DNA from: Ophelia neglecta
Taxonomy: Eukaryota
Direction: 5' to 3'
Assembly (NCBI GenBank): GCA_965285935.1
Contig: OZ260665.1
Span: forward strand, 48,980,001-49,044,000
Length of the DNA stretch: 64,000 nucleotides
The position numbers were made by a program, and so were the translations under genes. Shown piece by piece: positions 3,001 through 59,180 of this stretch (position 1 is the first letter of the stretch; every line of letters starts with the position of its first letter). Under the pieces are notes generated by a model. That model saw only the letters and a program-made list of their open reading frames with translations. It was not told where the DNA came from and did no database searches.

Positions 3001-4358
3001 ATACTGCAAAACAAATGGTGTAGTAGAAAAAATACAGGCGCCTACTGCACCTAAAGTGAATATCAGCTGTTCCCAAAATACTTCACATAGCTGAGCTTAA
3101 TTGTTGCTAGCTGTTCTCAGTAATTTATTAAACATATTATTATTATTATTATTATCATCATAAATAATACTAAAACAGTATTTATTTACGTCATTTGCTT
3201 TAATGACATTTAATGTCGCATACTTCATATAAAAAGAACATGCTCACTAGCACTGTACATAAAGATAAAGTTACTTTTTTAATCCCCGAGTAGCAGCCTT
3301 TCATTGTTATTACACATGATTGCTCCAACAAATGTCTGCCCTATGCTTCCTTTTAAGTACTACTTTATGGTGAAAATTGCCACCGGAGAGACTCCGAAGC
3401 TCCTCCCAGGATCTTACCATGGTAATCTGCCAGTCAGTTTTACTAGATTGGTATTTAAGTGCCCATCCATGATAAATCGGGAAAGCAGAAATAAAGCTCT
3501 GTGGTAAACATTATATGTCAAAAGATCAAAGGTACTATCTATATATAGTCTAACATCAAGTATTGGGAAGCTACAGTTAATAAACACAATAATTCACTGA
3601 TCTCATTGGATGATCTTTGTGCTTTCACACCAATTTTGATCATGACAAATAAACAAGGCATTTAAAAATGCAACCCCCATTCTATCCATTGAAAGGGATA
3701 GTAAATATATTTTTCAGACAGTCCACCCCTGTTTAAGGATAAATAACTAGTCAAAACCCCTGTCCCTCTCCACCAAAATTTTGTTACTGCTCAAAACAGT
3801 TGAAATTGTCCAAAATGGCACAAAAGCAAAAGCTTGTCAAGAAAAGCACTCCTGTCTAAGAGTCTAAGCATATATAACCCGTCCCAGACCCAGCCCTTCC
3901 CCTACACACATTTTATTTGCTCAGCCATTAATGAAAAGCAAAAAAAAGTTGGCAAATAAACATATTCAGATGTCCACCAATAGTTAACCAGTTCATGTTA
4001 AGCCTATAATGCTACTTGCTTGTCAAAGTTAGCTCCATAGCTCTGATACTTTTTGCACAATCTTTTTAAGCAGCTTTTTGAACCATACTGCTGTAGATGA
4101 AGTAGTACAGGCACTACCCTGATGCCACCTGTCTCATACAAATTTCCCAGGCCTATAAACCATACCTGCGGAATATAGTTACTGGGGCCCTAATGACAAC
4201 AGCCTTAACAAAAGGCAAAGGCAGGGGGACGGCAGCAGCAGTGGCACAGGACATGGCCCAGTACATATCCCCCAAATTACGAGTGGGGGGCAATGACTGG
4301 TGTTTTTAGTCAATGATGACTATAAGTCTTGCTTACATTCCTGTCCAGCTTGACGAAA

Positions 4359-4482
4359 CCGGCAGTTCAATGGACTGTGGCTTCTTCAAAAGGCAGTTCA
4401 ATGGACTGTGGCTTCTTCAACTGGCAGTTCAATGGACTGTGGCTTCTTCAACCGGCAGTTGAATGGACAGTGGCTTCTTCAA
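4359..4482. repeat. 31-bp tandem repeat, 4 copies
   Basis: Unit ccggcagttcaatggactgtggcttcttcaa starts at 4359, 4390, 4421 and 4452. Confidence 0.93.
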
Positions 4483-7400
4483 CGGGATGATATATAGGCT
4501 TCCGTTATTGAAATGGGCATTACAGCAGAAATGAACAAGAATTTCCATAAAAGGCAAAAGAGACATAGGTTGTCAACACTGTGTTTTAGAACCAATGTAG
4601 GAGTCAATGAAATAACATATGTTAGGCGACATGTTGATCATTATCTGGTACTTGCACTTGACAAATGCTTATCATGTACAAAAAGTAGAGAATAATTATT
4701 AGTTTTATCCCTGGTGTCCTTATTGCATATTTGGTGTTTTTTCCTTGTAACTTCTCTGCCAGCTAAAATTGATAACTCCAGCCCGACTGTATGGATCAAC
4801 ATCAATGAAAAAATAGTATATGGGCTGTAACATGGGGACCTGGGCGTTTTGGGCCATAAATAAAATGTCCGGGGTGACTGTAAAAAATGCATCCAGAAAA
4901 CCTATGTTATAAAAATTACTCATTACAAAACAAACCAGGTCTATCAATGGACAAAATTAATCTGAAGTATTGGGTGACAATTTAATACAATTATTTTTTA
5001 TTTTTCTTATAATGAAAGTATAGGTAGTACTTCTAGTTCACTTCATACATTTATGTGAGAAATAGGAAATGTATGAAGTCATATCCATCTACATTCACTG
5101 CTTTTAGGGACATGATTAATAAACTTTTTTTCTGTTTCAAATAAAAAGTGTTTTTTACACTAATACGAGATTTTTGCCCCAGTGTGCATAAGCAACAACA
5201 ACCTTGTACAACTTCTCATTGAGGGGCTAACTTTAATGAACTGCACTTTAAATAAATATGTTAAAAGAAAGATATTGCAATCACTGAGACTTTCCAGTAT
5301 AGTGATACATCTCTTTTTGTCTGACAGAATGTATCCTTTTCAAACTGGACAACATGCATTATCAATAACCTTAACCTGCTGGTCATTTGATCCACCATAG
5401 TCTCTCTCTTGCCATTTTATAATTAATTGTCTGACCATCTGGCAACATTCCGCAGCACAGAATTTATCAACAGCAGCTTGACTCGCAAGGTGTGAATTGA
5501 ACGTAATAAATAATCACATACTAGTTCTTATAACTTCAGCTCTAGGTTATTCAATTAATATTTACTAGCATCATGTCTCTCTCTCAACATCTCTGTGAGA
5601 AGAAGTTTCCTGAATGAATAGGGTGTGAAAAAAAAGTCAAGTAAAATTGACTGAGGTGTGATGCACATAGTTTTGTTAGAAAGCAGAGGTACATTGTACA
5701 AACATAAATCTTCAACTAGAGTACCTCATCTTGTTGCTTAACACCAATTTGCCTGATTTTTTAGGCTTTTCAGGCAACAAATGTGAGAGATCCTTGGGGT
5801 TTTAACAGCAAATTTGATCTGTGTTTTCACACTCAATTTTCTTCAGAATATACATGTAACTAATACTGCAGTAAGAGTAACAATAAAAATAGGATTCTAG
5901 TATTTAATATCCTTTCTAAAGGAAGTTTCCATGCCATGCAGCATACTGTTACCAATGGGAAAACATAAATCAATGATAATTTGAGTTTTATCTTGAATGT
6001 TGAGAGATAAGATGAATTTGGTAGCAGGTTTTAGACAAATTCATAAAGCAGCATGCTCATTTGATATCAAGACATAAATAATAAATACCTATGGGTCAAC
6101 CTACACACAATAAACATTTGTTTGGTGAAGACCTTTAAAACATAAATTGTGCTCCACTGCTCTCATAGACAATAAAACCTGCTCAGCATGTGATTTGTGC
6201 CAGCCAACTGGTAATTCAACAGTATTTCAATCTTTTCACCAGTACACAGTAGATAGAGTACCAATGCACATTGAAAACTCTCTCTGAAGTGCACATAATA
6301 TCAAGTCTGTTCTAATCATAATATATCATAGGGTTTGCCACCTACACCCCTCCCACCCATCCCCCTGCCCCCTGTTTTGAAAATGGGTTGATCCATTTGT
6401 GTGTCTAGGGCATGTTATCAACAAAGCCTTATAGAGAGGACACAATTTGACTTTTATTAAGTTTATGTTGTTGTCTATAAATTAAATATTGCTAAAAAAT
6501 TATTTATTTCTAGCCAATGTATCTGTTCTATATTAAAAGTCGGTCCAACTTTCCAAAGAAAAGGGTCAGCAGAGACAGCAATTGAGGGTAGTAGCAGGGA
6601 CATACAAGGATGACTGTAGATGGTTTGGGGGAGGGGGGGATGCCTGGTTGGGGGTTCGATTAATCAATTAATAAATGGGAAGGGGGTATGATGTTGTGTA
6701 GCCATTAAGTTGTTGCCTGGGAAAAAAAACGTGCTGTAAGGAGACCCAGGGGGTTGAAAGTGCATGTAATGAACTTTCCAAACTATTAATGTTGATACAG
6801 GAAAACCTTGCCAATTTGGTGAGAGTCTCACTAATTGGAACATTTTCAGCTCGCGAGCCTTTCCCAGGTTAAGGTATATAACTTTACCCCCAACAATAGC
6901 GCAATCTCCCTCTTCTAGATCTAAGGATCACTAACTTGTACATTTTGTAATATATCGCTGACTAATATGACCTAGCCTATCATATCCCTGTTTTCAATGC
7001 AGGTAATAGCTGTAATGCTATCTAGCACTCATATATTTGATAATACCTGTATACAATGTCATGTATTTGTACCAACAGGCATTTTTATTTTTTCTTTGTG
7101 TTTAACAGGAATATCAATTGGGTAAAATGAGGATTTGGTCTTTAATTGTTTCTCATGGCATTAAAAAAATGATTTGTTCAGTCGAGTAATATAAGTTTCT
7201 TATATGGTAAGAAACATTATAGACCCCTTCATTGATTTAAATGTTATCCTTCTGATAAGATTTACCAGACAAGCATTTGCTTTGACCAATATGCTTTCTG
7301 ACCAGGTCTAAGTGCAATGCCCATTGATCTACAGTGATCTAATATTAGTTCATGAAAAATAGGACCATGGTATCCTTGAGTTATCCTAAAACTGTTAGAA

Positions 7401-9985: not shown

Positions 9986-11466
9986 GATATAGTGAATAAC
10001 AATTGTTGATTTGAGAATGCACCTACGTCTATAGTTAGCCAAATCATTATTTTAAATGTTAGTTTAAAAGGCTACCCTGGTTACGTTTATTGGAAATTGG
10101 CATAAAATTAAAAGTGGAAATTGCCAATTTTGTTTTCCCCTGGTCAGGAACATGATCCTACTGTTGAGTTTCAAATCAATCTTACTACCCTTTGTCAAGT
10201 TCCTGCACCACTTTTCTTCTTCATTTTTCCTTGTGAATTTTTTCCTTCTGTCTTGTCAATGACTTGTCCAAAACCTTTTGTAAACCAACACACCTCAATG
10301 ATACCAGGACCCTTTCAGGAGCTTCAAGAATCTCAGTTCATTTTTAATGTCAAAGTTCACTTATGCACAGTTAGCCTAAGGAAAATATGTGAAGGCAACT
10401 TAAGGCTGTCATTTTAAGGAAATATAGCAAGCACTGTTTATCATTAATTTGTCTCTAGAAAAAAATAATGAAACTGTTCAAGATCAGGACTGTTGTAAAT
10501 TATATAAAATTCAAGAATACATCTATAGTCTGATGATCTGATATTAACGCTCCTGAGCAGACTGCACCACTATAATCCATGATAACAATTTGTCAAAGAG
10601 AGGAGACCTTTAAAATGCATCAGGTATAACTACCGGTAATTTGGTGGTGCCAGGTGGTGAGGCCTTGAAGGATTGCCAGAGCCAGTGAGAAGTTCCAGGC
10701 ATTGTTACACCTGTCTCCTTAAATCAAAAGCTGACAGGGCAGCCCTGTCCCCCTAGAGCCCAAATCATGAAAAAACCATGTTTTGCATAATAAGTGAACA
10801 CAACTTCATTTGTAAAACTATCAGAGCATACCTTCCCATAGGTTTTTTTCAGTAATAGACATAAGTCAAGGACAAGCAGCATGGACATGTATACCTCCAT
10901 CACATTATGTAACCAATACATCCATGTAAGAGTATCTGGTGGCTTTTTTCTTTCTGGATCAACCCGGTGGTATCAAATATGCTGGTATTAGTGACAACCT
11001 AAAAGCTTATTAGTGATTTAGACATTATTGCACTAATGAAGTTGTCTTAACAAAATGGGGTCACAGAAAAACAACTAAAAATACCTCCGGTGCCTTGTGA
11101 ATGAAGAGAAGAGATCATGGAATGTTTTTAATACTTTAAATACCAACAGGCAAAGTAAAAATGCTCATTGAATAATACATTCCCTGCTTTAGGGAATGTG
11201 ATCTCACGTCATCAAAAAAGATGCCAATCTGCCTTGAAAGAAGTGATATCACATATAAAAGTAGTTTTGACTGAAAGTCTATATTTATGAGCACTCATTG
11301 GATACCTACAAATTAGGTTTCAAAAAATAACTTACAACTCTGGCAATTATGTTCTTGTCTGGATAAAGATGATCATTTTTTACATAGGGAAATGTATTTT
11401 TGTCAAAGTTTCTATAAATATCTCAGTATTATAGCACACACATTGCAGACAATGTTTTGAGACAAG

Positions 11467-12105
11467 TATAACCGTGTTGATTTAAGTTAATTGTTGTTGG
11501 CCAACCTTATGGGAAGATTATATCTAGTATTTAGTTTAGTTATTGCTATGTGCCAGGAGTCTGTGAAGACAATGGGTTATCTGCTTTAATCGTGATCTGC
11601 CATCATCAGTGGCATATCTGGCATGTTGGCACTGGATAAGCTGGGATTGTAATTATTATATCTTCTCTTTTATCATTATTATTATTATCGTTTGTATGTA
11701 ACAGCTATGGTGGCAATGCAACCAGATTGGCTCCGATTAGGTAGATGTCAATTGCTGTCTGTATTTATATTAATTGCCATTGCTTGTAATAATTGTTTAG
11801 TGTGACACCTGGCAGTGCCCTATATAAACTGTGGTTAGATACTAGTGCGGTAGACTGGATTTCACCTCTGCAGGACACACATCTCTGGATCCCAGAGACA
11901 GGACCGGCCACTAGCCAGGACCTCCAGCCTTTAGCTCGGATTGCACCTGCACTGGACTGCCAGCTCTGTCTGTGACTCGTTTTCTATGCTTAATATCCAG
12001 TATTGTATATAAGCTACATCCCCAATAAAGTAAGTGATCAGTAGGAAGCCTCGAGTTGTTGTTATAACCTGGAATTGGAGCGGGACGCAAGGGACCCCGG
12101 TCATA
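11467..12105 (+). repeat. 5' LTR (639 bp)
   Basis: By eye identical to 13492-14130 except T11727 vs C13752. Contains TATATAAA (11821-11828) and AATAAA (12024-12029). Confidence 0.96.
11821..11828 (+). promoter_or_regulatory. LTR TATA box
   Basis: ccc-TATATAAA-c lies about 200 bp upstream of the LTR AATAAA, the usual U3-R-U5 layout. Confidence 0.7.
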
Positions 12106-12107
12106 TT

Positions 12108-12125
12108 TGGTGTGAGACGCGGGTT
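12108..12125 (+). other. Primer-binding site (tRNA-Leu-like)
   Basis: TGGTGTGAGACGCGGGTT starts 2 nt after the LTR end. It begins with TGG (complement of CCA) and resembles the complement of the tRNA-Leu 3' end (TGGTGTCAGAAGTGGGATTCGAAC) with several mismatches. Confidence 0.8.
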
Positions 12126-12281
12126 TGAACACTTTTCAGCTGTTCAAATCCCCAAACCTCTTTCTACAGAAGCGAGCAGACTCCACCATCACAGTGTTCT
12201 ACATTCCCAAAACTTCATCTACATCAGATTTAGACAATTCAAGTATTTTGTAAGTACTATCGGACCATTATTATAGCAAAC

Positions 12282-13418
12282 ATGGTTGGTCACATTGCAA
12301 CCTCCCAAAACCACTGCCACAGTCACTGTCAAGGAGCTGTCCCTGCATGCTGCAATGGTCACCACTGCTGTGTGCCTCAAAGTCTTAATGTGCCATGTGT
12401 GAACCAAGTTGTGTTGAGGAAAAAGAAGTCACCATCTACAGTAAGAAGAGATATTGCCAGAAAGCAAGAGTTTATGAAAAGGAAGTTTCAAACGAACAAC
12501 AGCCAAAACAAAATAAGCGAAAAAGCAGGTCAGAAATTAAAAGAGGTCATAGCTTCAAAGAATATAGAGATTGAAACGTTGAACCAGATACAGCAAAGTG
12601 CAAAAGTGACCAATGAAGCGACAGTCCAGGAATTGAAAAACCTGCTGAGGAACCAGAAAACTGTGATCGAGCACCTACAAGAAGACAAAGCAACAAGTCT
12701 AAAAGAAGTAAGCATATTAAAAGAAGAACTGGAATTTTTTCGGATGGGCTCAGCATCAGTGGCCTCCCTGCAAGAACAACTAGAAGAAGGCAAAACCAAG
12801 CATGAATCCTACTGTAAATCGCTCCATGACACACTAGACCATTGCAAGCAGGAGATGGCTAAACAAGGAAATAGCATCCAAAGTCTGACCACAGATCTCA
12901 ACGCCCTTATAACCAAAGACCAAAAATCTTTGTCAACAATACAACTTTTAACCACCAATGTGCAAGAACTAAGGCAGGTATTAGAGAATGATAAAGAATT
13001 TGAACGCTTGTTTAAAAATATAAAAGAATTTGATACAGAAATTTTAAAATATAGAGACGATGCTGATTATGAAAGTAAACATTTAACCTCTTTGTATAAC
13101 AAACTTATGGGAGAATGGGTATATTTTATGTCAAACTGGGATTTTATCCATTGTAACCATAAATCAAGCTATGAAAAACCATTGTGTATTTTGGATGAAG
13201 TGACACAAAATCTAGAGTATGTGAACGTGTTGGGTAACTCTTACCACAAATATTATCTGGTAGAGCCCACTTGTGGCTGTCCTCCAAAATGGTATGATGA
13301 TGTGCAAATGAGTAATCAAAAACTTATCAATGAATATCAAAAAAGGTATGATACCAAAATTCGGAAAAACAGTCGTTATTGTTCTGCGAAACCAATTTTT
13401 ACCAATACAAAAGTCTAG
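12282..13418 (+). CDS. 378-aa protein of unknown family: Cys/His-rich N-terminus, basic RKKKSPSTVRR motif, long coiled coil, aromatic/Cys-containing C-terminal domain
   Basis: By far the longest ORF in the window, with a strong context (gcaaacATGG), filling about 82% of the 1,386-bp internal region. No CCHC knuckle, D(S/T)G protease, YxDD RT or integrase motif seen. Confidence 0.85.
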   Translation: MVGHIATSQNHCHSHCQGAVPACCNGHHCCVPQSLNVPCVNQVVLRKKKSPSTVRRDIARKQEFMKRKFQTNNSQNKISEKAGQKLKEVIASKNIEIETLNQIQQSAKVTNEATVQELKNLLRNQKTVIEHLQEDKATSLKEVSILKEELEFFRMGSASVASLQEQLEEGKTKHESYCKSLHDTLDHCKQEMAKQGNSIQSLTTDLNALITKDQKSLSTIQLLTTNVQELRQVLENDKEFERLFKNIKEFDTEILKYRDDADYESKHLTSLYNKLMGEWVYFMSNWDFIHCNHKSSYEKPLCILDEVTQNLEYVNVLGNSYHKYYLVEPTCGCPPKWYDDVQMSNQKLINEYQKRYDTKIRKNSRYCSAKPIFTNTKV

Positions 13419-13476
13419 TTAATGCACTGAAAATTTTAGTTCAAAATTGATTTTTAGACACGGGAGTGTCTTGCTT

Positions 13477-13487
13477 GAAAAGAGAGG
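13477..13487 (+). other. Polypurine tract
   Basis: GAAAAGAGAGG lies 4 nt upstream of the 3' LTR. Confidence 0.85.
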
Positions 13488-13491
13488 CATA

Positions 13492-14130
13492 TATAACCGT
13501 GTTGATTTAAGTTAATTGTTGTTGGCCAACCTTATGGGAAGATTATATCTAGTATTTAGTTTAGTTATTGCTATGTGCCAGGAGTCTGTGAAGACAATGG
13601 GTTATCTGCTTTAATCGTGATCTGCCATCATCAGTGGCATATCTGGCATGTTGGCACTGGATAAGCTGGGATTGTAATTATTATATCTTCTCTTTTATCA
13701 TTATTATTATTATCGTTTGTATGTAACAGCTATGGTGGCAATGCAACCAGACTGGCTCCGATTAGGTAGATGTCAATTGCTGTCTGTATTTATATTAATT
13801 GCCATTGCTTGTAATAATTGTTTAGTGTGACACCTGGCAGTGCCCTATATAAACTGTGGTTAGATACTAGTGCGGTAGACTGGATTTCACCTCTGCAGGA
13901 CACACATCTCTGGATCCCAGAGACAGGACCGGCCACTAGCCAGGACCTCCAGCCTTTAGCTCGGATTGCACCTGCACTGGACTGCCAGCTCTGTCTGTGA
14001 CTCGTTTTCTATGCTTAATATCCAGTATTGTATATAAGCTACATCCCCAATAAAGTAAGTGATCAGTAGGAAGCCTCGAGTTGTTGTTATAACCTGGAAT
14101 TGGAGCGGGACGCAAGGGACCCCGGTCATA
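13492..14130 (+). repeat. 3' LTR (639 bp)
   Basis: Copy of the 5' LTR at an offset of 2025 bp; AATAAA at 14049-14054. Confidence 0.96.
14049..14054 (+). terminator. Polyadenylation signal of the 3' LTR
   Basis: AATAAA followed about 25 nt later by GT-rich gttgttgtt. Confidence 0.7.
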
Positions 14131-17100
14131 CAAGCATTGAACTTCTTACTGGTGCCTTCCCTTTTCATATGACTACCTAACCCTTTTAAATTTATACACA
14201 ATTTTCCCACTCCAACATTTTGAGTTTTAAATAAAACAAATTGTCATCATCAAATTCTATTAATATGACATTTTCATGGCAACTGGCTAAGTTTGGCTCA
14301 TTTTATCCACAGGAATCAGGATAAGGAAAACATACCATCTATGGACATGTACATCATCAGAAATATTAACAATCTTAGTATCAGATTTCTGACTCTCTGT
14401 TATGATATGTTACATATGTATGGTACACTACTTCACTTAGCATGTTTTTTAAGTGCACTTTCAGTCTCAAGAATTTACATGATTGACATTCTACAGGATT
14501 ACGTTTCTCTAAATATCCATTGGTTTATTGTGTTTGGCCTTGATAAAAATTTACCTGGAAGCAAAGATCTCTACAGGTTCTCCAATAATTATCATGCAAT
14601 ACCAATGTTTATAGGACATGTTAAATATAAAGTGCAAAGTGATCTACTTTGTGATTATTCGAAAGTATCATATTTTGATAAAACTACATTACATTATCCA
14701 AATAGACTCATTTCATTATGCAGGAGACCTACGGGCTCCATGGTATAAAAAACAGATTAAATTTGAAATATGTATGTTAGAAACACAGAGCCAACATTGC
14801 TTGGGGCAAAACTTGTAGTCACACATAAAACACTACACAAGTTCCACTTATGTTCAAATCAGCTATTTTTGTTTTGGTATTTATTTTTATAACCTAGATA
14901 CAAAGCCATACACATAGATATTCCTTTTACATAAGAAAGTAATCAATTTGAACCAACATAATATATGGTAAGGACCCACTTAATAGATGGTAACAAAGCT
15001 CCAACTCTCAAGGAGATCATGATACTTCCTAATTACAACTTCTTTCTTATCTTGATCCCACTTTCATTCCTTAATTACTCCAATGAACTTCCTTGGATAA
15101 TTCCAATATAAAACCAAGTTCTGGTCCATCAATCCCTTGCCGTCAGTCTGCCTTGTTTTAGGTCCCTCTTTTGCTTTTGTAGCTGTGGTGTAGCCTAATT
15201 CCCAAACTGGTTAAGCCTATCTATACTCCCCCCCCCCTCCTATTAAAATGCTCTCATCCTGTTTTGGTAAACAAGTGTGCCACATCATCTAAACAAAGTG
15301 GCACAATGTAAGAAATGCAGGTGTTGGGGTAGCTCCAACAGGATCATAGTTGGAGCTTAGCCAGAAGTAAAACTTACAGATATCACAAAAAACACTGGAA
15401 ATATGGCTGCTATATAGACATAGACAGAAGGTGTATTACATGAATATTGCTTAGCTTTGTGAGGTAGCTAGCCAGCTTAAAATTAGCTAGCAATAAAAAA
15501 TGAATCCTGAATCCTCTATAAGCATTGTTAGGTTTCTTACCTGAAGCTAGTCTATTGTAACTGTGTGTGACTAGCTTGGTTGTTTGTGCTATGATATTAC
15601 ACACAAAGGGAGTTTATAAGATTATTTACCAACAGCAGTTAATTACTTTAAAAAGTGTGTTAGAAAATATACTGACACTGTTACTTTGTTGCAGAAGCCA
15701 GGGAACACGGTGTGTATGTTGAAATATATTTTAATTTTCATCATCCTATTTTACACTACCCCAGACTCTTAACAAAACACTTTTTTATGGGCGGACAGAC
15801 AGAACAGCCTGTCATTTTAAAACTGAACTTCACAGGAATAGATGTGTCATTTTGACTTAACTAAGTACCTAGGACAATTGATTTTACATCACATGGGATC
15901 AGTTCTATTCAAGACAATCAGCATGTCAGTAATTATCCAATACAAACAGCAACCACCCCCAGAGAAAAAGCACTTGTAAAACTATGCCTCCTGATGGTTT
16001 TCTGATATCTCCTTACACCAGGAGCAATCCATCTCACTCTAGTTTCTATAGTGAACAGTTTCTTGCTGGGTGAAAAAGGAGAGGAGACTATAGAATAAAG
16101 CTGGCTAGGGAGAGAAAATGTTTTAGCAACATAGAAAAATATCGCCCTCAGGCTTCTAGACAGAATGGCTAGGAACATTATGACACCATTTTGATGTGAT
16201 GGTTTCTAGTGATATTTCACTCCCCTAGCAGCTGTTATCTTTCACTAGGTAATCCTCCTTCATTGCATCTTCACTGCACTGGGTAAGGCTAGGTGGAAGA
16301 CAGCCAAGAAACAATATTTCCTTAGTGTGTGATTGATTGGAAGTTTTTTTATACACACAACAATCATGGCCAAAGCATTAGCCAGTGATTTATGTGCTGC
16401 ATATGTATTAGCCTACACCCAAAATACAATTATCTCACATAATAAAACAGAATGGGATCAAAACATGCCAAGCGCAAGGCTTTAAAGTAAAGTTAAGATT
16501 GCCCATCAACCAGCCCAATATGAAAATGGATGGTTTTCCCACCCTTCAGATTAATGATAAAGAAGCCATATAAAATTGCAAAAGCTTGTTACATTTTGTT
16601 CATAAGCTCAGATGTATCAGCCTAATAGAGGAAGTCTAATCTCCTCCCTCAGACTGTATACTTTCAAGCTTAGATAAGAAGCTTGAAGATGACTCAGGAG
16701 GGATACTGATGGAGAGGGATGATTCTTTTATTGGGACACCCACTGGGAAATGCTATCAGACATCTTGCCATACTGCACATTACTGTCCATCACCTAACAT
16801 CATCCCCTCTGCACTGAAACTCAACAGTGAGCACAAATGTGGAATCTGTAGCATGCTCAAAGGTATTACTCAGGTACACATGCTATTCACCAGTTTACAC
16901 ATAGGGCACATCAGGTCTCCACATGAATAAACACACAGTACCCTTGACTCCATTAGAAAAAGTGAATAGCACCTCAAGCTCAGAATGAAAAAAAGTGAAG
17001 TTTTGCATGTTTTATTGGGACAGAACATTGTTAAATATTCACATATGTAATTGTAAAATATCACTTCTTAGTGATAAATAGATTCTGCTGGTTGAGATAT

Positions 17101-19880: not shown

Positions 19881-21506
19881 AAAAAAACAATCCAAACCAG
19901 ATTTTGGCATTTTCTACCGACCCAAAACTGAGAACAGAAAAACAATGCTAGGGTCTCCTGTTTAAGGTGGTAAACAGTTTCAAAGCTCCTGGTGGCCATA
20001 TTGTTTCAGAGGGCTGACCAAAAACATAATTTCTAAGTGTTATACCTTCTTTTTTAAAGCTACGCTATCTGTACGAAATTGGTGACAGGCTAGAACCTGC
20101 TCTTTCACAGTACTCAAGTCCAACCAGACACACAGGCACATATACTATAACCAGGCTCACCCCAGACATACAAGCTTCTAGAATACAGAAAACGGCATTA
20201 TATTAAAAATAATGCAGATAAAGCCCCGCAATATGGACCAGCTTACTAATATTTGATGCAGATGTAGCCCCTAGGCAGGTTTTGCATCCTGTGGTAGAGA
20301 TTTACAACTAGCAAAACTACTGGTGTCATTGGCAGAAGGAACACCAGACAAAAATATGAACAAAAATTTGTACTCTAGCATTGACTGACAGACCAATAGA
20401 GTAGTGTAGCCATGTTACTACATGTATCTTATAGTATAATGGAGACCTCATGAAGAAGACTGTCTGTAAAAAGGTTCCAGCTATATGCTTCAACTAACAT
20501 TTATTGCTCATACCCCATTGAACAACAGATGTATAGCCTGAGAGAAAATCGTGTAAAAAGCAATTAAATTTTGTCCAAGTTCCAGTCAATGCTCTCTTAC
20601 TTTGCACTCCTATTGCACAAGAGATTTCAAGATCAACTGGCATTAATTTAACTATTGGGGTGAGGCCAGCTGTCAACAAGTTGGCAAAGTTAATGGTTTC
20701 CAGACATCACTGAGTGCTAATTGTTTTGAGGTTGAGTTATCTTGGAGAAAAAACTATGGTTTTATAATATAACAACACTACTCTGGAATAAAACCTCAGT
20801 AAAACCCATTTGTGTAAAGTGCCACTCCCAATGCAAATTCTTACATGTTTCTTTTAACCACAGTCTTCATTCCATTCGTGATTATCTATGAAGGTTTTAC
20901 TTGGCCAAAGTAAAATCTCCTGAGCTGATCTCAAGTAACTGATAACCCCACACACTTTTAAAAGATAACAACATTCCTTAATTTACAGTGAATGAAAACA
21001 AGTCCCCTTCAAGCTGTCAACCTTATGGCAGTACAGGCACTGCCAATTTAAGTTTTTCATCTACTCTCTACCCATTTGCTGCAAGTCCACCACCATAAAC
21101 GGGTAAAGGCACCTGCCACTACTAAAGCTTGCTTAACATTAAACCTGGGCTATATACATGTATATGCAAAACTCTCAAATTTGCAAGAAAAAGCCAAGTA
21201 TAAATGTCTGTACATGTCACCCAGGGCACAAGAGTGAGTTCAACACATTTCTTACTTATTGTAAAAAAGTATGCATAGTGTAAAATTGAAATAATAGTAG
21301 ACATCCTGTGAAAGTTATCTTGAAATTGGACTTCCTTATTTTCACTGTAAATGGGTCTGCCTGTTGTAGTTTTCTTTAAGCTCATGGACTTTGTTATATC
21401 TTTCTTATGTTTCCTTTTCTTCTGCCAAGAAAAACTTGGACCTACTCTACTGGTATATAATAGAATTCCCATATTGTTGGGTAAAGAGAGCAACTATAAT
21501 ACTTAC

Positions 21507-21641
21507 ATAGTTGTTTTTGAGATCAGTATGAGTATGTTCGATGCCATCGTCCAGTATGGTAATGACCACTCCTCGCCCTGTGTAGCCTCTCTCCCATGCT
21601 TTTATCACATTCATGTCAAAACCTCCCTCAGCTCCACCATG
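21507..21641 (-). CDS. Furin-2/PCSK5-like convertase, coding exon 4 (start of S8 catalytic domain, catalytic Asp)
   Basis: Reads gatgtag|[45 protein letters not shown]|gtaagt (135 nt). DMNV..AW..GYTG.GVV..ILDDG is diagnostic, and the GGA-x-x-G-x-DMNV start resembles invertebrate furin-2. I did not find the next exon (D..AS.D...HGTRCAGE) in 1-21506, so the gene probably continues left of the window. Confidence 0.97.
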
Positions 21642-36300: not shown

Positions 36301-37155
36301 GCAAACCATCCAAAAGCATTAGTCAATTTCAACAACAGATTTCCCATAAGTGGCCCAACTAAAATCCTTGGCAGTAAAGGATGTAATTATATCACCAATT
36401 AAATGAAGGTAACATGCTGTAAAGAAATGGTGGACACATTTTATTTGATATCAAGAGCAAGAAATCAAGGGAAGAATTCATCTTGAATGTCAAGAATTTT
36501 CCGTTCCCTCGGGTCAAATTAAGGATTTCTGCACTCATTCATTTGGGCAATCTGTGGGGCTGCTTGATTTCAATTTCAGTAATTCAATGATTCCTGTGAG
36601 TCCAGACACAAATCAATAGAACTTGTTGGAAACTCAAATAAGAAACTTGAGGAAAGGATTCAACTAAAGATAAGCAACATGGTCACAAGGAGACAAATCC
36701 CTCCCTAATCAGGAGAAACATTTCCCCATTATTACACTAAACTGAGTGCAGCTAATGGTAGCTTGTGATCTGAAGGGACATGGAGTAATTACTAATATTC
36801 CATCCTTAACCCTTTTGAACATCATTGTGATGAGCCATGAATTACATGAACAAAGTCAAGTACTGAAAGCCTTCACAAACGGGATGGTTAGACGCCAAGT
36901 CTGACCTCCTGAAAGATTGATCTAATGGCTTTCTGCATTTAACTGTCAACTCTGAACATGGCTCTAGGACAAAAATGTCTGTGACACACTGATGAATTGT
37001 GGTTGGCGGGAGCTTGTATTTTAGGACATTGCTTGACTTAATTACAAGAGACAAATCAATACAATTACTTTTATTAATATCATTGACTACAATAGCATGA
37101 GTATCAATCATACCATAATATGACTGCATGCTCGTTCTTCTAGAACACATTACTG

Positions 37156-38400
37156 GCAGACATAACTAAGAAGTGTAGTGGTAGACATAAGCATGTGGAG
37201 AAGTGGCTGGCATAACTAAGTAATGTAGGGGTAGACATAATCAAGTAGAGTAGTGGCAGACATAGCTAAGTTACATAGGGGTAGACATAATCAAGTAGAG
37301 TAGGGGCAGACATAGCTAAGTAATGTAGGGGTGGACATAATGAAGTAGAATAGTGGCAGACTTAGCTAAGTAATGTTGGGGTAGACATAATCAAGTAGAG
37401 TAGTGGCAGACATAGCTAAGTAATGTAGGGGTGGACATAATCAAGTAGAGTAGTGGCAGACATAACTAAGTAATGTAGGGGTAGACATAATCAAGAAGAG
37501 TAGTGGCAGACATAGCTAAGTAATGTAGGGGTGGACATAATCAAGTAGAGTAGTGGCAGACATAACTAAGTAATGTAGGGGTAGACAAAATCAAGTAGAG
37601 TAGTGGAAGACATAGCTAAGTTACATAGGGGTAGACATAATCAAGTAGAGTAGGGGCAGACATAGCTAAGTAATGTAGGGGTGGACATAATGAAGTAGAA
37701 TAGTGGCAGACTTAGCTAAGTAATGTTGGGGTAGACATAATCAAGTAGAGTAGTGGCAGACATAGCTAAGTAATGTAGGGGTGGACATAATCAAGTAGAG
37801 TAGTGGCAGACATAACTAAGTAATGTAGGGGTAGACAAAATCAAGTAGAGTAGTGGAAGACATAGCTAAGTTACATAGGGGTAGACATAATCAAGTAGAG
37901 TAGGGGCAGACATAGCTAAGTAATGTAGGGGTGGACATAATGAAGTAGAATAGTGGCAGACATAGCTAAGAAATGTTGGTGTAGACATGATCAAGTAGAG
38001 TAGTGGCAGACATAGCTAAGTTACATAGGGGTAGACATAATCAAGTAGAGTAGGGGCAGACATAGCTAAGTAATGTAGGGGTGGACATAATGAAGTAGAA
38101 TAGTGGCAGACATAGCTAAGTAATGTTGGGGTAGGCATAATCAAGTAGGGTAGAGGCAGACATAGCTAAGTTATGTAGGGGTAGACATAATCAAGTAGAG
38201 TAGTGGCAGACATAGCTAATTAATGTAGGGGTGGACATAATGAAGTAGAATAGTGGCAGACATAGCTAAGTAATGTTGGGGTAGACATAATCAAGTAGAG
38301 TAGTTGCAGACACAACCAAGTAGAGTAGTGGCAGACATAACTATGGAGAGAAGTGGCAGACACAACCAAGTAGAGTAATTGTTGACATAACCAAGTAGAG
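37156..38400. repeat. Minisatellite, 50-bp unit made of two related 25-mers, about 21 full units plus degenerate edges
   Basis: Consensus gtagacataatcaagtagagtagtg-gcagacatagctaagtaatgtaggg, in exact 50-bp register from 37231 to 38280. Confidence 0.97.
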
Positions 38401-39981: not shown

Positions 39982-40322
39982 GGGGGGGGGGGGGGAGAGA
40001 GAGATAAGCTCCATTTTGTTTAGACGGGGAAGTCCTGATTTGCTTCAGAATATCCAACCCATGCATGTAAATCATACCTAACAAATATGTACCTGTGCAT
40101 GTTAATTTTTCGGCTCTGGATTATCCATCCTTGATACGAATTGCCCGATTAAGCACCAACCGATGAAAGGGTTTGCCAAAAAAGGACCCACCCATGTAAG
40201 GCTTTGCCAAAAAAGGGCCCCATCCATGTAAATCCCGGCCCAGAAAAAACTACCCACGCAAGTGACATGTCCCCATATACCAATATATGGAGCTCCCCAC
40301 CCTCACCCCCACCCCTGTCCCG
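39982..40322. mobile_element. MITE-like element with G-run / C-run ends
   Basis: Left (G)n...agctccattttgtttagacgggg versus right-end reverse complement ggggagctccatatattggtatatgggg; internal 2x duplication of ggtttgccaaaaaagg.ccca.ccatgtaa at about 40169-40231. Confidence 0.5.
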
Positions 40323-55500: not shown

Positions 55501-58359
55501 AATTTATTAATCTGCCTACCAAAGTTTAAACTTGACTGTCATAGACGGGAGGCTATCACATAATAGAACAACTCTAATACATGTAAATGTGCTGGTGTTG
55601 AGCCTAAGTCGAGAGGCATCAAGTTAGTTGGGGGAGGAATTAGTAACAGCAATGTACAAAAACTGCTTTCCCATTCTTTTGGATAAAAATGACACAAAAT
55701 TAACCTATTGTTGGTTTTGAATAAGCAATGGCCAAGGTATTCACATTATAAAAATAAACACAAAATACTCCAAGAAGAAGACGCATTGGGATAAACCGTG
55801 CTATTTTTCTTCTTGTCTCCTCCAGCTACTTAGGGCCGGTATTTGATAGTTAGGTTGAATTGTATTCTCAGCCCTGTATGTATAGCTTAAACCTTGTTTC
55901 AACAGAAATGTTAACAAAGGGTATGCATACATTCTAAAATAACGCCTAGCACTTACTACGGTTCATTTAATTAAATGTTCAAGTACACCTGTATAGAATA
56001 ATGTCTATCAGAAATGGGTGTGCATTATTATCTATATTTCCTTACAATATTTAATATCTTTGATATATTTGGCAATGGTGGTTCCATTATGTACAGGTTG
56101 GGCCAACTTTTATTTATTGCAATTGATTCTCTCTTTCAAGTAACCGTTTCTTTTTGATGACAAAATAAACCTTAAGCATGCTGATGCCACTGAATGTCAA
56201 CTAAAGGTGGTCAGTTTTAGACTTTGACAGTAATCCCCCATAGGAAAGTGAACAATGCAGCAGAGGTTTACAGACTGAGGAATCATCAAATAACACAACA
56301 AAGGCATGGGGAGAAGGGCAATTTGGCCAGGTGGGATCTTTTGTCCACCCTTTAATTATGCCCTGGTGGAGAGGCCATGCCTGTTCATCAAGGTGGTGGC
56401 ATGGTGCACAGTGGGTAAACTTGGCCAGCTGATATAGGACCACTTTCTCAGGCTGACATTTGTTTCACTGATTACACTAGTGGTTTCTTACTGACGTCGT
56501 CTCAAAACATCAGTTGGGAGTATCTTATTGGTTATGTTTTAGTTCAAAAAATACAACAAAAAAGTGACAGATTCCAGCATATTATGATTATCCTGATAAA
56601 GGCTCATCATTTATAATAACATGTGCCCTGGTACATGAGTTTTATCATGTTTTATTTCTATTAATAGAATAGCAATTCCTGAGAAGTAAATTACTTTCAT
56701 TGGAGAATTCCATGTGAATTACAGTAATTTGGCTTATTAAGGCCTACATATAATATTATTGCAAACATATTTTACAGCTTCTCAATAACAAGCATCTAAG
56801 TGTACTTACATGTACATGGTATATGTAACCTACACATTTTTGTTAAAAAAGATCTGTCTAACATATCTGTAAATCAAAATATTTGTTGCATTGGTTAACT
56901 TCTGGTATTTACAGAAGTCTCGATTTAGGGTACCTTCTGCTACATAACTACTTCTTAAAGCAGTTTAAATAATCTGTAAACCAAAGTTCCAAGGACCACC
57001 AATTTAGATTCATTTTCAGCTGATGCTAGGGGGTGAGTGTCAATTTTAAGTTCCAAAGGCAAGTTTAATATCTATAGGATTAGCTAAAAATGAACAGGTT
57101 AGAAATATATTTGTACCAGACAGGTATAAAATGAGCTGTAAAACTGTCTGTGGTTGACCAGGTTAGCCATGATCAGTTTTAAGGTTATGTAGTTTTATAG
57201 GGTTAAGCAACTGAAGACCAACTTTATCACAATGAAGTCCACTCAACCTTCTAAATGTGTTGACAGTGAAGCTTATCCATATCAGAGCACATATTTGCAT
57301 TTATATGTAACACATCGAGACATACCTGCAGTATCCAGCAATTGGTACTCGGATTGGCACACAATCACAAATTACTTTTGCTGTTTATCATCAAGGGCCA
57401 GGGTTAAAAAGAGTGTTTGAATTCAACAGCTTGTCAGAGCTATATGCTTAAAACTACATATCTACAGTAATGTTTTAGTACACAATATGCAAGCCATTTA
57501 AGATATCAGTACGGTCTTTCCTATATTCATTGTTATTGCTTATATTAGTTTGCATAAAGTGCCTTTCACTAATTGTGGATTGCATGTCCAATTGAAAATC
57601 TATTCTATTTATTCTTCTAATAGCATATAATCATTAAGTTCAGCCTTCTGCCATCGATGACTTATTCAAATGCTCTCATGGGACACTTAATATAAGCCTG
57701 AGGTGTATTTTTCAACACTAACCTGCAGATAATGATCTGTTCAATGATTAGAGCTCGTTATTTGGAAGGTAACTGATGGAATATAGCTTCAAGGTACAAC
57801 TATCCAAGGTTCACTGCCTACAGGGAGTATATACCATGGATACATCATAAATTGAATATACTTTCACTTTAGTTAACAATTCCAGCTCTATGGTGCATTG
57901 CAATCAGGCATTAACTGGCAATGGTCCTAATGTGGATATCTAGCCAATATGATAATTACGGAAGTGCATTGTTATACCTTACATTTGAATTAATCCATTG
58001 AAAATTGGTTCTTTGAAACAACATTAATTAGTACAAAACTGATATAAATAGGTATTATGTGCCCCCAGCCAACCACATTCAATTTCTTGTTTACAAATAC
58101 ATGCTTCTTAACACACAGGCAGAATAATTTTAGTTTGAAACTTTCATTGATATTGCTCTAAGTCATATAATTTTAACACTAAAGTCTATACAATAAGTGT
58201 GACGAATTTTAACAAATTTCTCCTGACTTCTGTATATATGTGACATACAATTTAAAATGTAGTCATTGCAAAGGACAATTGTCAGAATGTCCTAATATGT
58301 ACACCGATACATTGTCTTATAAATGGTCCGGAAAAAAAAGCAAATTATAGGTGTCTCAC

Positions 58360-58521
58360 CTTTCCCAGGTTCCTAAATCCATGAAGAGCCGCAATGTGAT
58401 TGGCGATGTTTTCTCCTCCTTTGATTTCTACTGCCCATTTATTAAGGAAAACATTAGCAATAGATCTTCCATGTAGACATATTAACACCAATAAAAATTT
58501 GGTCCATTGATCATATGCCAT
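58360..58521 (-). CDS. Furin-2/PCSK5-like proprotein convertase, coding exon 1 (signal peptide and start of prodomain)
   Basis: Translates MAYDQWTKFLLVLICLHGRSIANVFLNKWAVEIKGGENIANHIAALHGFRNLGK (54 aa). A hydrophobic signal peptide is followed by the N-x-WAV-x-I-x-GG...A...HGF-x-NLG pattern of kexin/furin (S8B) prodomains. ATG context is aagtcATGG; the donor is AAG|gtgaga, phase 0. Confidence 0.93.
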
Positions 58522-59180
58522 GACTTTGGCAAGACCGGCGGCAGTTGCTGCGGGTTGCTCTGCTGACAGATGCTGACTCCAGTTTGACAGTTGCTTGCAG
58601 TTTGGCTCTACTGGGATGCGGATTGCCTTCGGCTCAGGCTCCTCGCGTGTTCATCCGTCAGGCGCACCCAGAAATCGCCGACATGGGCACCCGCTTTCCT
58701 AGATTTCACTCATTTCTTAGGCTATTCAGGAGACACGATACAAAATGTTTATCCTGGCAGAACGGCGGTGCTGTACTCCCCGATTTAACGTCAGTCATAG
58801 TTGCGTGTTGGTTGCAAACATCCTTCTGCTACCAGCTGTCAAACAGCGGCTGGAAAACAGAGCTCTCTACGCCGGAGGTAGGAATACTATATACACACCG
58901 GGCTGTGTGGCGGAGTATAGCGTACTATGGCTTCAGTCAATCGGACACGCGCCAGCTCGAGGCCATATGTATCTGAACAGCACCGCCAGTGGACAACCTG
59001 CGGAGCTCGACCGGCGCTTGAGATCCGCAGATAAATTCACGAATTGTACATTTAAAACTCGATTCCATTCAAGCGCTTTAGAAGGCCGAATTAAAAGGTC
59101 CTTCATTGGCAAAGGCTGGGCACATTATAGGCTTGACCTTCCGCTCCGCGAGTCCCGCTCTTATAAGCTTTTAATCGCTT
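58522..59180 (-). promoter_or_regulatory. CpG-rich promoter / 5' UTR region of the convertase gene
   Basis: Abrupt rise in GC content and CpG density immediately upstream of the ATG, against a strongly CpG-depleted gene body. Confidence 0.7.

Follow-up and report, generated by a model that had tools for sequence, protein, structure and literature searches.

Several vertebrate LTR elements are non-autonomous and carry a single open reading frame (ORF), among them zebrafish BHIKHARI Bik-1/Bik-2 (crestin), chicken ENS-1/ERNI, and Xenopus 1a11 and xretpos. As far as they are described in the available text of two sources (PMC12067270, PMC4585706), these elements share with the one analysed here the flanking LTRs, a young and insertion-polymorphic state, an N-terminal coiled coil and the lack of pol, the last being stated for 1a11 and xretpos (PMC4585706). 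The Bik and ERNI ORFs are described there as Gag with a predicted capsid domain (617 aa in the case of Bik-1; PMC12067270), whereas the 378-aa product found here, P0001, shows no capsid fold in its predicted models or among the fold matches listed; a predicted chromodomain of its own sets it apart from what the published descriptions say of Bik and ERNI. There is a functional parallel in ERNI, which is reported to recruit HP1-gamma via a C-terminal box, without a chromodomain of its own in the part of the source available (PMC9365273).

Another comparison is offered by the chromoviruses (Ty3/Gypsy), which are likewise LTR elements encoding a chromodomain fold, but on the integrase; the accessible portions of PMC2774666, PMC3350952 and PMC13524379 report LTR-element chromodomains at the integrase C-terminus. 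In our case, the domain ends a stand-alone coiled-coil protein, there is no integrase, and the sequence is far more divergent, with no Pfam match. Bdelloid rotifer LTR retrotransposons also carry cargo that is neither gag nor env, including coiled-coil types, for which an auxiliary role has been proposed; unlike P0001, these are third ORFs of autonomous elements and, in the text available, without a chromodomain (PMC5408684). In the literature that we searched, vertebrate single-ORF LTR elements encode Gag, and the chromodomains of LTR elements are integrase tails. The cargo of the present element is most likely not Gag but a coiled-coil protein with a divergent chromodomain, an architecture that we did not find described in the titles and opening abstracts of that literature; an entry in Repbase, Dfam or a supplement may exist.

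The LTR element and its insertion

The window, by which we mean the whole stretch of 64,000 nucleotides that was analysed, contains an LTR element of 2,664 bp. Its interior of 1386 bp has the 378-aa frame as the sole long ORF (Table 1). The anatomy of the element is solid. In all three runs, which come from one sample, contigs join position 11461 to 14130 and skip 2668 bases, that is, the 2664-bp element plus one copy of the 4-bp duplication. The joint marks the empty site and confirms both the element borders and the duplication.

The same runs contain diverged sister copies, with 25 of 285 and 32 of 377 bases differing in ungapped comparison, and beside the latter a further copy that is identical over 377 bases. 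One sister copy has a 1004-base internal deletion (window 12112-13117) and a slightly different primer site, and another has a 276-base internal deletion (window 13131-13408). Read depth over the ORF and the LTRs is higher than over the flanks, and depth is here no measure of copy number. Given the empty site, the diverged sisters and the internally deleted copies, the insertion is young and polymorphic, and the element belongs to a multi-copy family that has subfamilies.

Both LTRs are without the canonical TG...CA ends and have TAT...ATA instead, so that TA stands symmetrically at both ends in place of the usual TG/CA. No report of such non-canonical TA-type ends in vertebrates was found in the literature searched. 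The Troyka LTR retrotransposons also have non-canonical ends, but these are described as CG...CG with a 3-bp duplication (PMC12440569, in the text available), as compared to TA...TA with a 4-bp duplication here.

A Pfam search of the 1386-bp interior gave no match to reverse transcriptase, integrase or protease, so the element has no pol of its own. It is established that non-autonomous LTR elements are copied in trans, and since this one carries the sequence signals that reverse transcription and integration require but none of the enzymes, it must be copied in this way. The non-canonical TA ends of both LTRs mean that the integrase of the partner must accept such ends. A check for self-priming of the Tf1/sushi type found no complement of at least 6 nt in the LTR.

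Table 1. Features of the LTR element and of its protein, with positions in the window
Feature	Position	Strand	Basis
Target-site duplication, left copy, 4 bp	11463..11466	+	sequence and empty-site joint
5' LTR, 639 bp, ends TAT...ATA	11467..12105	+	LTR comparison
TATA box in 5' LTR	11821-11828		
AATAAA in 5' LTR	12024-12029		
Primer-binding-site-like stretch, TGG start, 2 nt past 5' LTR	12108..12125	+	sequence directly
Splice-donor-like GTAAGT in leader (putative), 26 nt upstream of ATG	12250..12255	+	sequence only
Intact ORF, 378 aa (P0001); start ATG, A at -3, G at +4	12282..13418	+	
Cys/His cluster, aa 11-39	12312..12398	+	low model confidence
Basic Ser-Pro motif, then predicted helix, aa 46-68	12417..12485	+	sequence, alignment, model
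Coiled coil, aa 112-256	12615..13049	+	heptad test, AlphaFold, fold search
Helix ahead of chromo-like domain, aa 263-285	13068..13136	+	models; kept in relatives
Predicted chromodomain fold, aa 294-362, three strands and helix	13161..13367	+	models, fold searches; sequence tests weak
Polypurine tract, 11 purines, 4 nt ahead of 3' LTR	13477..13487	+	sequence directly
3' LTR, 639 bp	13492..14130	+	1 mismatch with 5' LTR
Target-site duplication, right copy	14131..14134	+	sequence and empty-site joint

The protein and its distant relatives

The ORF that a sequence-only reading of the window had described is real: the frame is free of stops, it is the longest of the 19 ORFs of at least 100 aa in the window, and the stop frequency of the window predicts about 2e-7 frames of this kind by chance. 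The compositional features that this reading had pointed out were found as well, namely a Cys/His cluster at aa 11-39 (7 Cys, 5 His), a strongly basic stretch at aa 46-68 (11 K/R against 2 D/E), an E/K/Q/L-rich middle part (45% of aa 71-260) with a heptad periodicity over aa 80-260 that was matched by none of 500 shuffles, and a C-terminus rich in W/Y/F (15% of aa 261-378). It had also held that the protein is not Env-like, and indeed P0001 has neither a signal peptide nor a transmembrane anchor; there is no membrane helix, since the highest 19-residue hydropathy is only 0.62. The CCHC knuckle is absent, as had been said, and so are a Gly/Arg-rich C-terminal nucleic-acid tail and any Pfam match to gag.

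AlphaFold predicts a single helix for aa 112-235 (pLDDT mostly 82-93), and by eye Ile/Val predominate at the a positions of the coiled-coil heptads and Leu at the d positions. P0001, with its long coiled coil, is probably a nuclear protein. We looked for an internal duplication of the Cys/His motif in the DNA, and the result was not significant (402 of 1000 shuffles).

A HMMER search over 1.84 billion representative proteins gave four matches, three of which were kept as full-length relatives: P0003, P0004 and P0005 (E = 7e-14, 8e-9 and 4e-4). The fourth, P0002, is a repetitive thrips protein with a low-complexity match to the coiled coil; P0016, also a low-complexity coiled-coil match, was dropped. 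BLASTP identities are 24-31% between P0001 and the relatives and 29-35% among the relatives themselves. Taken separately, the first 70 residues and the last 118 both find all three relatives (pairwise E of 1e-7 to 2e-3 and of 8e-13 to 1e-7, respectively), while the coiled coil between these conserved ends drifts. Each of the three distant relatives has all of the parts: His/Cys-basic motif, coiled coil and C-terminal domain. Because proteins at 24-31% identity keep both ends together, the architecture is, judging from the alignments, old and not a recent chimera.

Which residues are invariant in all four sequences? In the basic motif these are K48, K49, S50, P51, S52, R55, R56, D57 and R60; this strongly conserved Ser-Pro motif likely serves in nuclear localisation or nucleic-acid contact. 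In the C-terminal domain they are H293, P300, I303, L304, D305, Y324, L326, V327, C331, C333, P334, P335, W337, I349, K354 and C367. The two Cys/His patterns that had been proposed from the sequence stand in part. The N-terminal cluster is present, but half of it is an extension particular to the lineage of this copy: P0003 and P0005 begin level with about aa 21 of P0001, and because these two relatives start there, the first half of the cluster is a lineage addition. Only H27, H28, C29 and C30 (12360-12371) are invariant in it. From the C-terminal pattern H293, C331, C333 and C367 are invariant, but H290, C291, C302 and H322 are variable. The four invariant residues may form a structural zinc site.

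None of the relatives has a name. ENA, JGI and Logan assemblies are their only sources, and all appear as unbroken ORFs: P0003 represents a cluster of 11 full-length variants, whose contigs measure 1.6-3.5 kb, and the contigs of P0004 and P0005 measure 1.9 and 1.4 kb. Since the ORFs are unbroken on contigs of 1.4-3.5 kb, their sequences suggest intronless mobile copies; they could also be transcripts. Within the P0003 cluster (P0003 and P0006-P0015) a few substitutions are combined in a mosaic manner, as would be expected of recombining copies or alleles, and most changes fall into aa 56-78, just past the basic motif. Searching by pattern for the loci of the relatives, we could confirm 0 among 222, 163 and 303 matches. 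A word-indexed search with P0001 of a collection of 5.8 billion proteins led to 1789 candidates, none of which was kept, and further searching likewise brought in no new member.

Other databases had little to say about this family. For P0001, Pfam gave three weak helical matches, all below the cut-off, and no Chromo match; for P0003, P0004 and P0005 there were generic coiled-coil matches, none above the cut-off among the matches listed, and again no Chromo. By sequence, P0001 found one myosin fragment in the PDB (E = 0.14) and the profile of its C-terminus found two chance matches. In the ESM Atlas, aa 240-378 had no usable match and P0005 matched generic coiled-coil clusters alone (0.89-0.90). 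A confident match along its length to a retrotransposon capsid or a well-known host protein would have spoken against the earlier description of P0001; neither such a match nor one to an envelope came up among the matches listed.

Another idea is that the ORF derives from a poorly studied host gene, captured in spliced form, and rides in the element as a passenger. LTR elements do capture extra ORFs (PMC5408684, in the part available). Furthermore, the ORF may be dispensable in cis, because there are sister copies that have lost 276 or 1004 bp internally, and synonymous changes are not enriched among the 8 listed sites at which sister copies differ (3 of 8 are synonymous, too few to show selection). 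On the other hand, no named host protein was found in the 5.8-billion collection or among the 1.84 billion representatives, the relatives are unbroken ORFs on short contigs, and four proteins with identities of only 24-40% have all remained intact and share the invariant residues. An open gene with both ends conserved across such deep divergence suggests selection, and we consider a passenger rather unlikely.

The coding DNA had been reported to become more AT-rich after about 12980, and a chimeric origin had been suggested as a possible reason. The change as such is real (GC3 is 0.44 before 12980 and 0.28 after it), but its onset is better placed near 12918 (codon 213), the best change point for GC3 (permutation p = 0.026). 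The step comes mostly from the two-fold pyrimidine codons, with C in 32 of 58 before and 12 of 61 after, a difference reached in 4 of 3000 permutations. A chimeric origin of the architecture does not follow from it: the relatives have the N-terminal motif as well as the C-terminal domain, and the change point lies inside the coiled coil. Recombination between diverged element subfamilies is a candidate that would explain the codon step.

The step also bears on the possibility that the protein is a chromovirus leftover, with the chromodomain of an integrase tail fused to a foreign coiled coil and with the AT shift near 12918 as the join. Chromodomains of LTR elements are normally located at the integrase C-terminus, as the available text of PMC2774666 and PMC3350952 has it, and the codon shift is significant. 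However, both parts co-occur in the relatives, so any fusion would have to be ancient, and codon 213 is not at a domain border. The C-terminal profile, run over 1437 candidates, gave three matches, all stand-alone, and no longer or pol-fused form, which counts as weak evidence. We regard such a leftover as improbable.

A predicted fold for the C-terminal domain

The sequence-only reading had called the C-terminal domain novel. This label we would replace: by AlphaFold and fold searches it is most likely a divergent chromodomain fold. The AlphaFold models rest on an alignment of four sequences, with a pLDDT of 48-76 over the C-terminal domain. In the full model, long helices run as far as aa 256 and a further helix covers 263-285; after these come three strands (300-310, 321-329, 336-339) and a last helix (346-362). 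Folding the domain alone (the short model) gave the same order of three strands and a helix. Three strands followed by a C-terminal helix is the layout described for chromodomains (PMC3350952, in its available text), and both predicted models have it, with the helix capping a three-stranded sheet.

Using Foldseek, we found that 40 of the 42 matches listed for the full model are chromo or chromoshadow proteins (CBX7 with a probability of 0.97 and a target TM of 0.70), and that 38 of the 45 listed for the short model are chromo. None of these matches reached E = 0.001, the best values being 0.047 for the short model and 0.058 for the full model. A re-alignment of the full model, which is a second look at the 685 chains of Foldseek itself, listed 50 matches, all of them chromo or chromoshadow domains. 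MPP8 had a Z of 8.4 with an rmsd of 1.9 Å over 58 of 61 residues, and CBX7 and SUV39H1 both had a Z of 8.1, so that the top scores are tied. In an unbiased search of 48,161 chains, 46 of the 50 matches listed fall on the long helices and are coiled coils or otherwise helical proteins; the remaining 4 cover aa 294-366, and all are chromodomains, with Z of 7.2-7.9.

Compared to the host proteins MPP8, CBX7, SUV39H1, Rhino/Oxpecker, HP1 shadow and Chd1, the domain overlays with Z of 6.7-8.4 and an rmsd of mostly 1.4-3 Å over 48-61 residues. It differs from them in its sequence (5-21% identity), in the apparent absence of the cage aromatics and in its conserved His/Cys, and the remainder of P0001 matches none of these proteins.

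The results for the short model are less uniform. Its best Z is 4.2, with 23 chromo and 9 chemokine structures among the 50 matches listed, and 42 chromo and 8 chemokine structures among the 50 matches of another listing. Potentially, the C-terminus could have a different fold of three strands plus a helix, chemokine-like or new and stabilised by zinc, with no role in chromatin. With the short model, chemokines score as well as chromodomains do (Z of 3.7-4.2), the sequence tests described below are not significant, and conserved Cys/His are not a feature of chromodomains. On the other hand, no chemokine appears among the matches listed for the full model (42 from Foldseek, 50 re-aligned), the overlay identity is 10-22% to classical chromodomains versus 3-10% to chemokines, and the protein has no signal peptide. 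A fold other than a chromodomain therefore seems to us very improbable.

Can the similarity be seen in the sequence? Pfam found no match to PF00385 (Chromo) in P0001 or in P0003-P0005. For a closer comparison, chromodomains were collected by motif from viral contigs, and all nine that were sent to Pfam were confirmed as PF00385. We built a profile on the 14 distinct ones among 17 loci. Of the four C-terminal parts, that of P0003 stood out from shuffles (1 of 500), and this in another register; the other three did not. With hhalign against the nine confirmed domains we obtained E = 0.02 and a probability of 2%, a score that was reached by 18 of 300 column shuffles. The register of this alignment is the expected one; it pairs the Y-L-V strand, residue W337 and the final helix with their chromodomain counterparts. 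Of the chromo-box motif (aromatic-L-V-K-W/y-x-g; PMC3350952), P0001 has 3 of 7 positions and the relatives have 4 of 7, as counted by eye. Among the collected loci, nine (L007, L008, L011-L013, L015, L017-L019) are near-identical chromodomain-like ORFs on contigs of 4-21 kb from the viral IMG/VR set; from this group L007 was confirmed as PF00385.

Taking the models and searches together, aa 294-362 very probably have a chromodomain fold, and a descent from chromodomains is probable too. We stop short of certainty on both because the results for the short model and for the sequence profiles run against a chromodomain reading.

The residues at the positions of the methyl-lysine cage are E298, P329 and G332 in P0001, none of which is aromatic, as read from the hhalign register and ungapped counting. 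Y297 adjoins the cage position E298 and is not conserved. In the relatives, by the sequence register, one of three positions is aromatic, the middle one only. The cage thus appears to be missing from the domain. Chromodomains without a cage are described elsewhere, namely the shadow domains and those of plant chromovirus group II; the cage residues are likewise lacking in the latter, and its ligands are not known according to the text available (PMC3350952). In contrast, the domains of vertebrate chromoviruses are assigned to group I and said to have their cage intact, which P0001 appears not to have.

Possible roles and genomic surroundings

While the anatomy can be read from the DNA and the fold is probable, the function of the protein can only be inferred. 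The explanation that we prefer, and in which our confidence is evenly poised, is that of a recent LTR element without gag, pol and env, whose protein associates with itself and works on chromatin in the nucleus, to the advantage of the element family. Going by the models, P0001 likely acts on host chromatin and not in particle building, because there is no capsid gene and the coiled coil ends in a predicted chromodomain fold.

In such a scheme the element would be copied in trans by an autonomous partner, probably of the Ty3/Gypsy type, which would use the primer site, the purine tract and the LTRs of the element itself. The coiled-coil rod would dimerise and present two chromo-like heads, and the basic Ser-Pro motif would take the protein into the nucleus or bind it to nucleic acid. 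Because the methyl-lysine cage appears to be absent, the heads would not be readers of H3K9me3 and would bind DNA, RNA or a protein motif instead, as has been proposed for shadow and group II chromodomains. As an outcome, the LTRs would stay transcribed or integration would be steered.

A different role that has to be weighed is that of a stand-in for Gag or ORF1, in which the coiled coil oligomerises while the basic motif and the cage-less head bind the element's own RNA and bring it into the particles of the partner. The position of the ORF is that of gag, directly past the primer site and a splice-donor-like hexamer; the single-ORF elements Bik-1/2 and ENS-1 are described as encoding Gag with an N-terminal coiled coil (PMC12067270, available text), and some chromodomains bind RNA or DNA (PMC3350952, likewise). 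This reading is opposed by the lack of the CCHC knuckle and of a gag match, and by the structures: both models contain strands and not an all-helical domain of the size of a capsid. No capsid was found among the matches listed of six fold searches. The PDB fold matches listed also contain no integrase core and no envelope, and a library of viral structures gave no match at E = 0.001. We think of a Gag stand-in as possible though unlikely.

A more specific form of the chromatin factor can be proposed tentatively. MPP8 is reported to be linked to the HUSH silencing complex. A dimeric, cage-less and possibly zinc-braced factor might be a decoy or antagonist of host chromodomain silencers (of the HP1 or MPP8/HUSH type) and keep both the element and its partner active; our confidence in this is low. 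If true, it would be an anti-silencing factor encoded by a transposon, in a family that has dropped gag, pol and env and retained a chromatin protein of its own.

What makes the locus useful is that a stand-alone product with a coiled coil and a predicted chromodomain fold, conserved to about 25% identity, points to an unannotated family of mobile proteins, which may engage host chromatin directly. This family is blank in Pfam and in the protein atlas, and a predicted fold can now be given to it. With its single small and intact gene, the element lends itself to the question of whether LTR elements make counter-silencing or targeting factors of their own.

As for the surroundings, the DNA of the window is depleted in CpG (0.23), a depletion of the kind seen in vertebrates, with a CpG-rich stretch at about 58.5-59.5 kb, and Rfam had no match over the whole window. 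Two exons of a proprotein-convertase (furin-like) gene, 58348-58650 (-) and 21450-21641 (-), encode an S8 pro-domain and the first part of the S8 domain. The introns of this gene measure tens of kb, and the LTR element is antisense to it. Because a search of the window with short motifs showed no further exon, the sequence makes it likely that the element lies inside an intron of this gene. A short interspersed repeat of about 200 bp at 10086-10292 is single in the window and has many diverged copies in the runs. Two tandem arrays (4357-4483 and 40151-40231) both have a 31-bp period with units that differ, and a minisatellite at 37154-38400 consists of 25-bp units arranged as a 50-bp dimer in about 25 copies, with a strong G skew.
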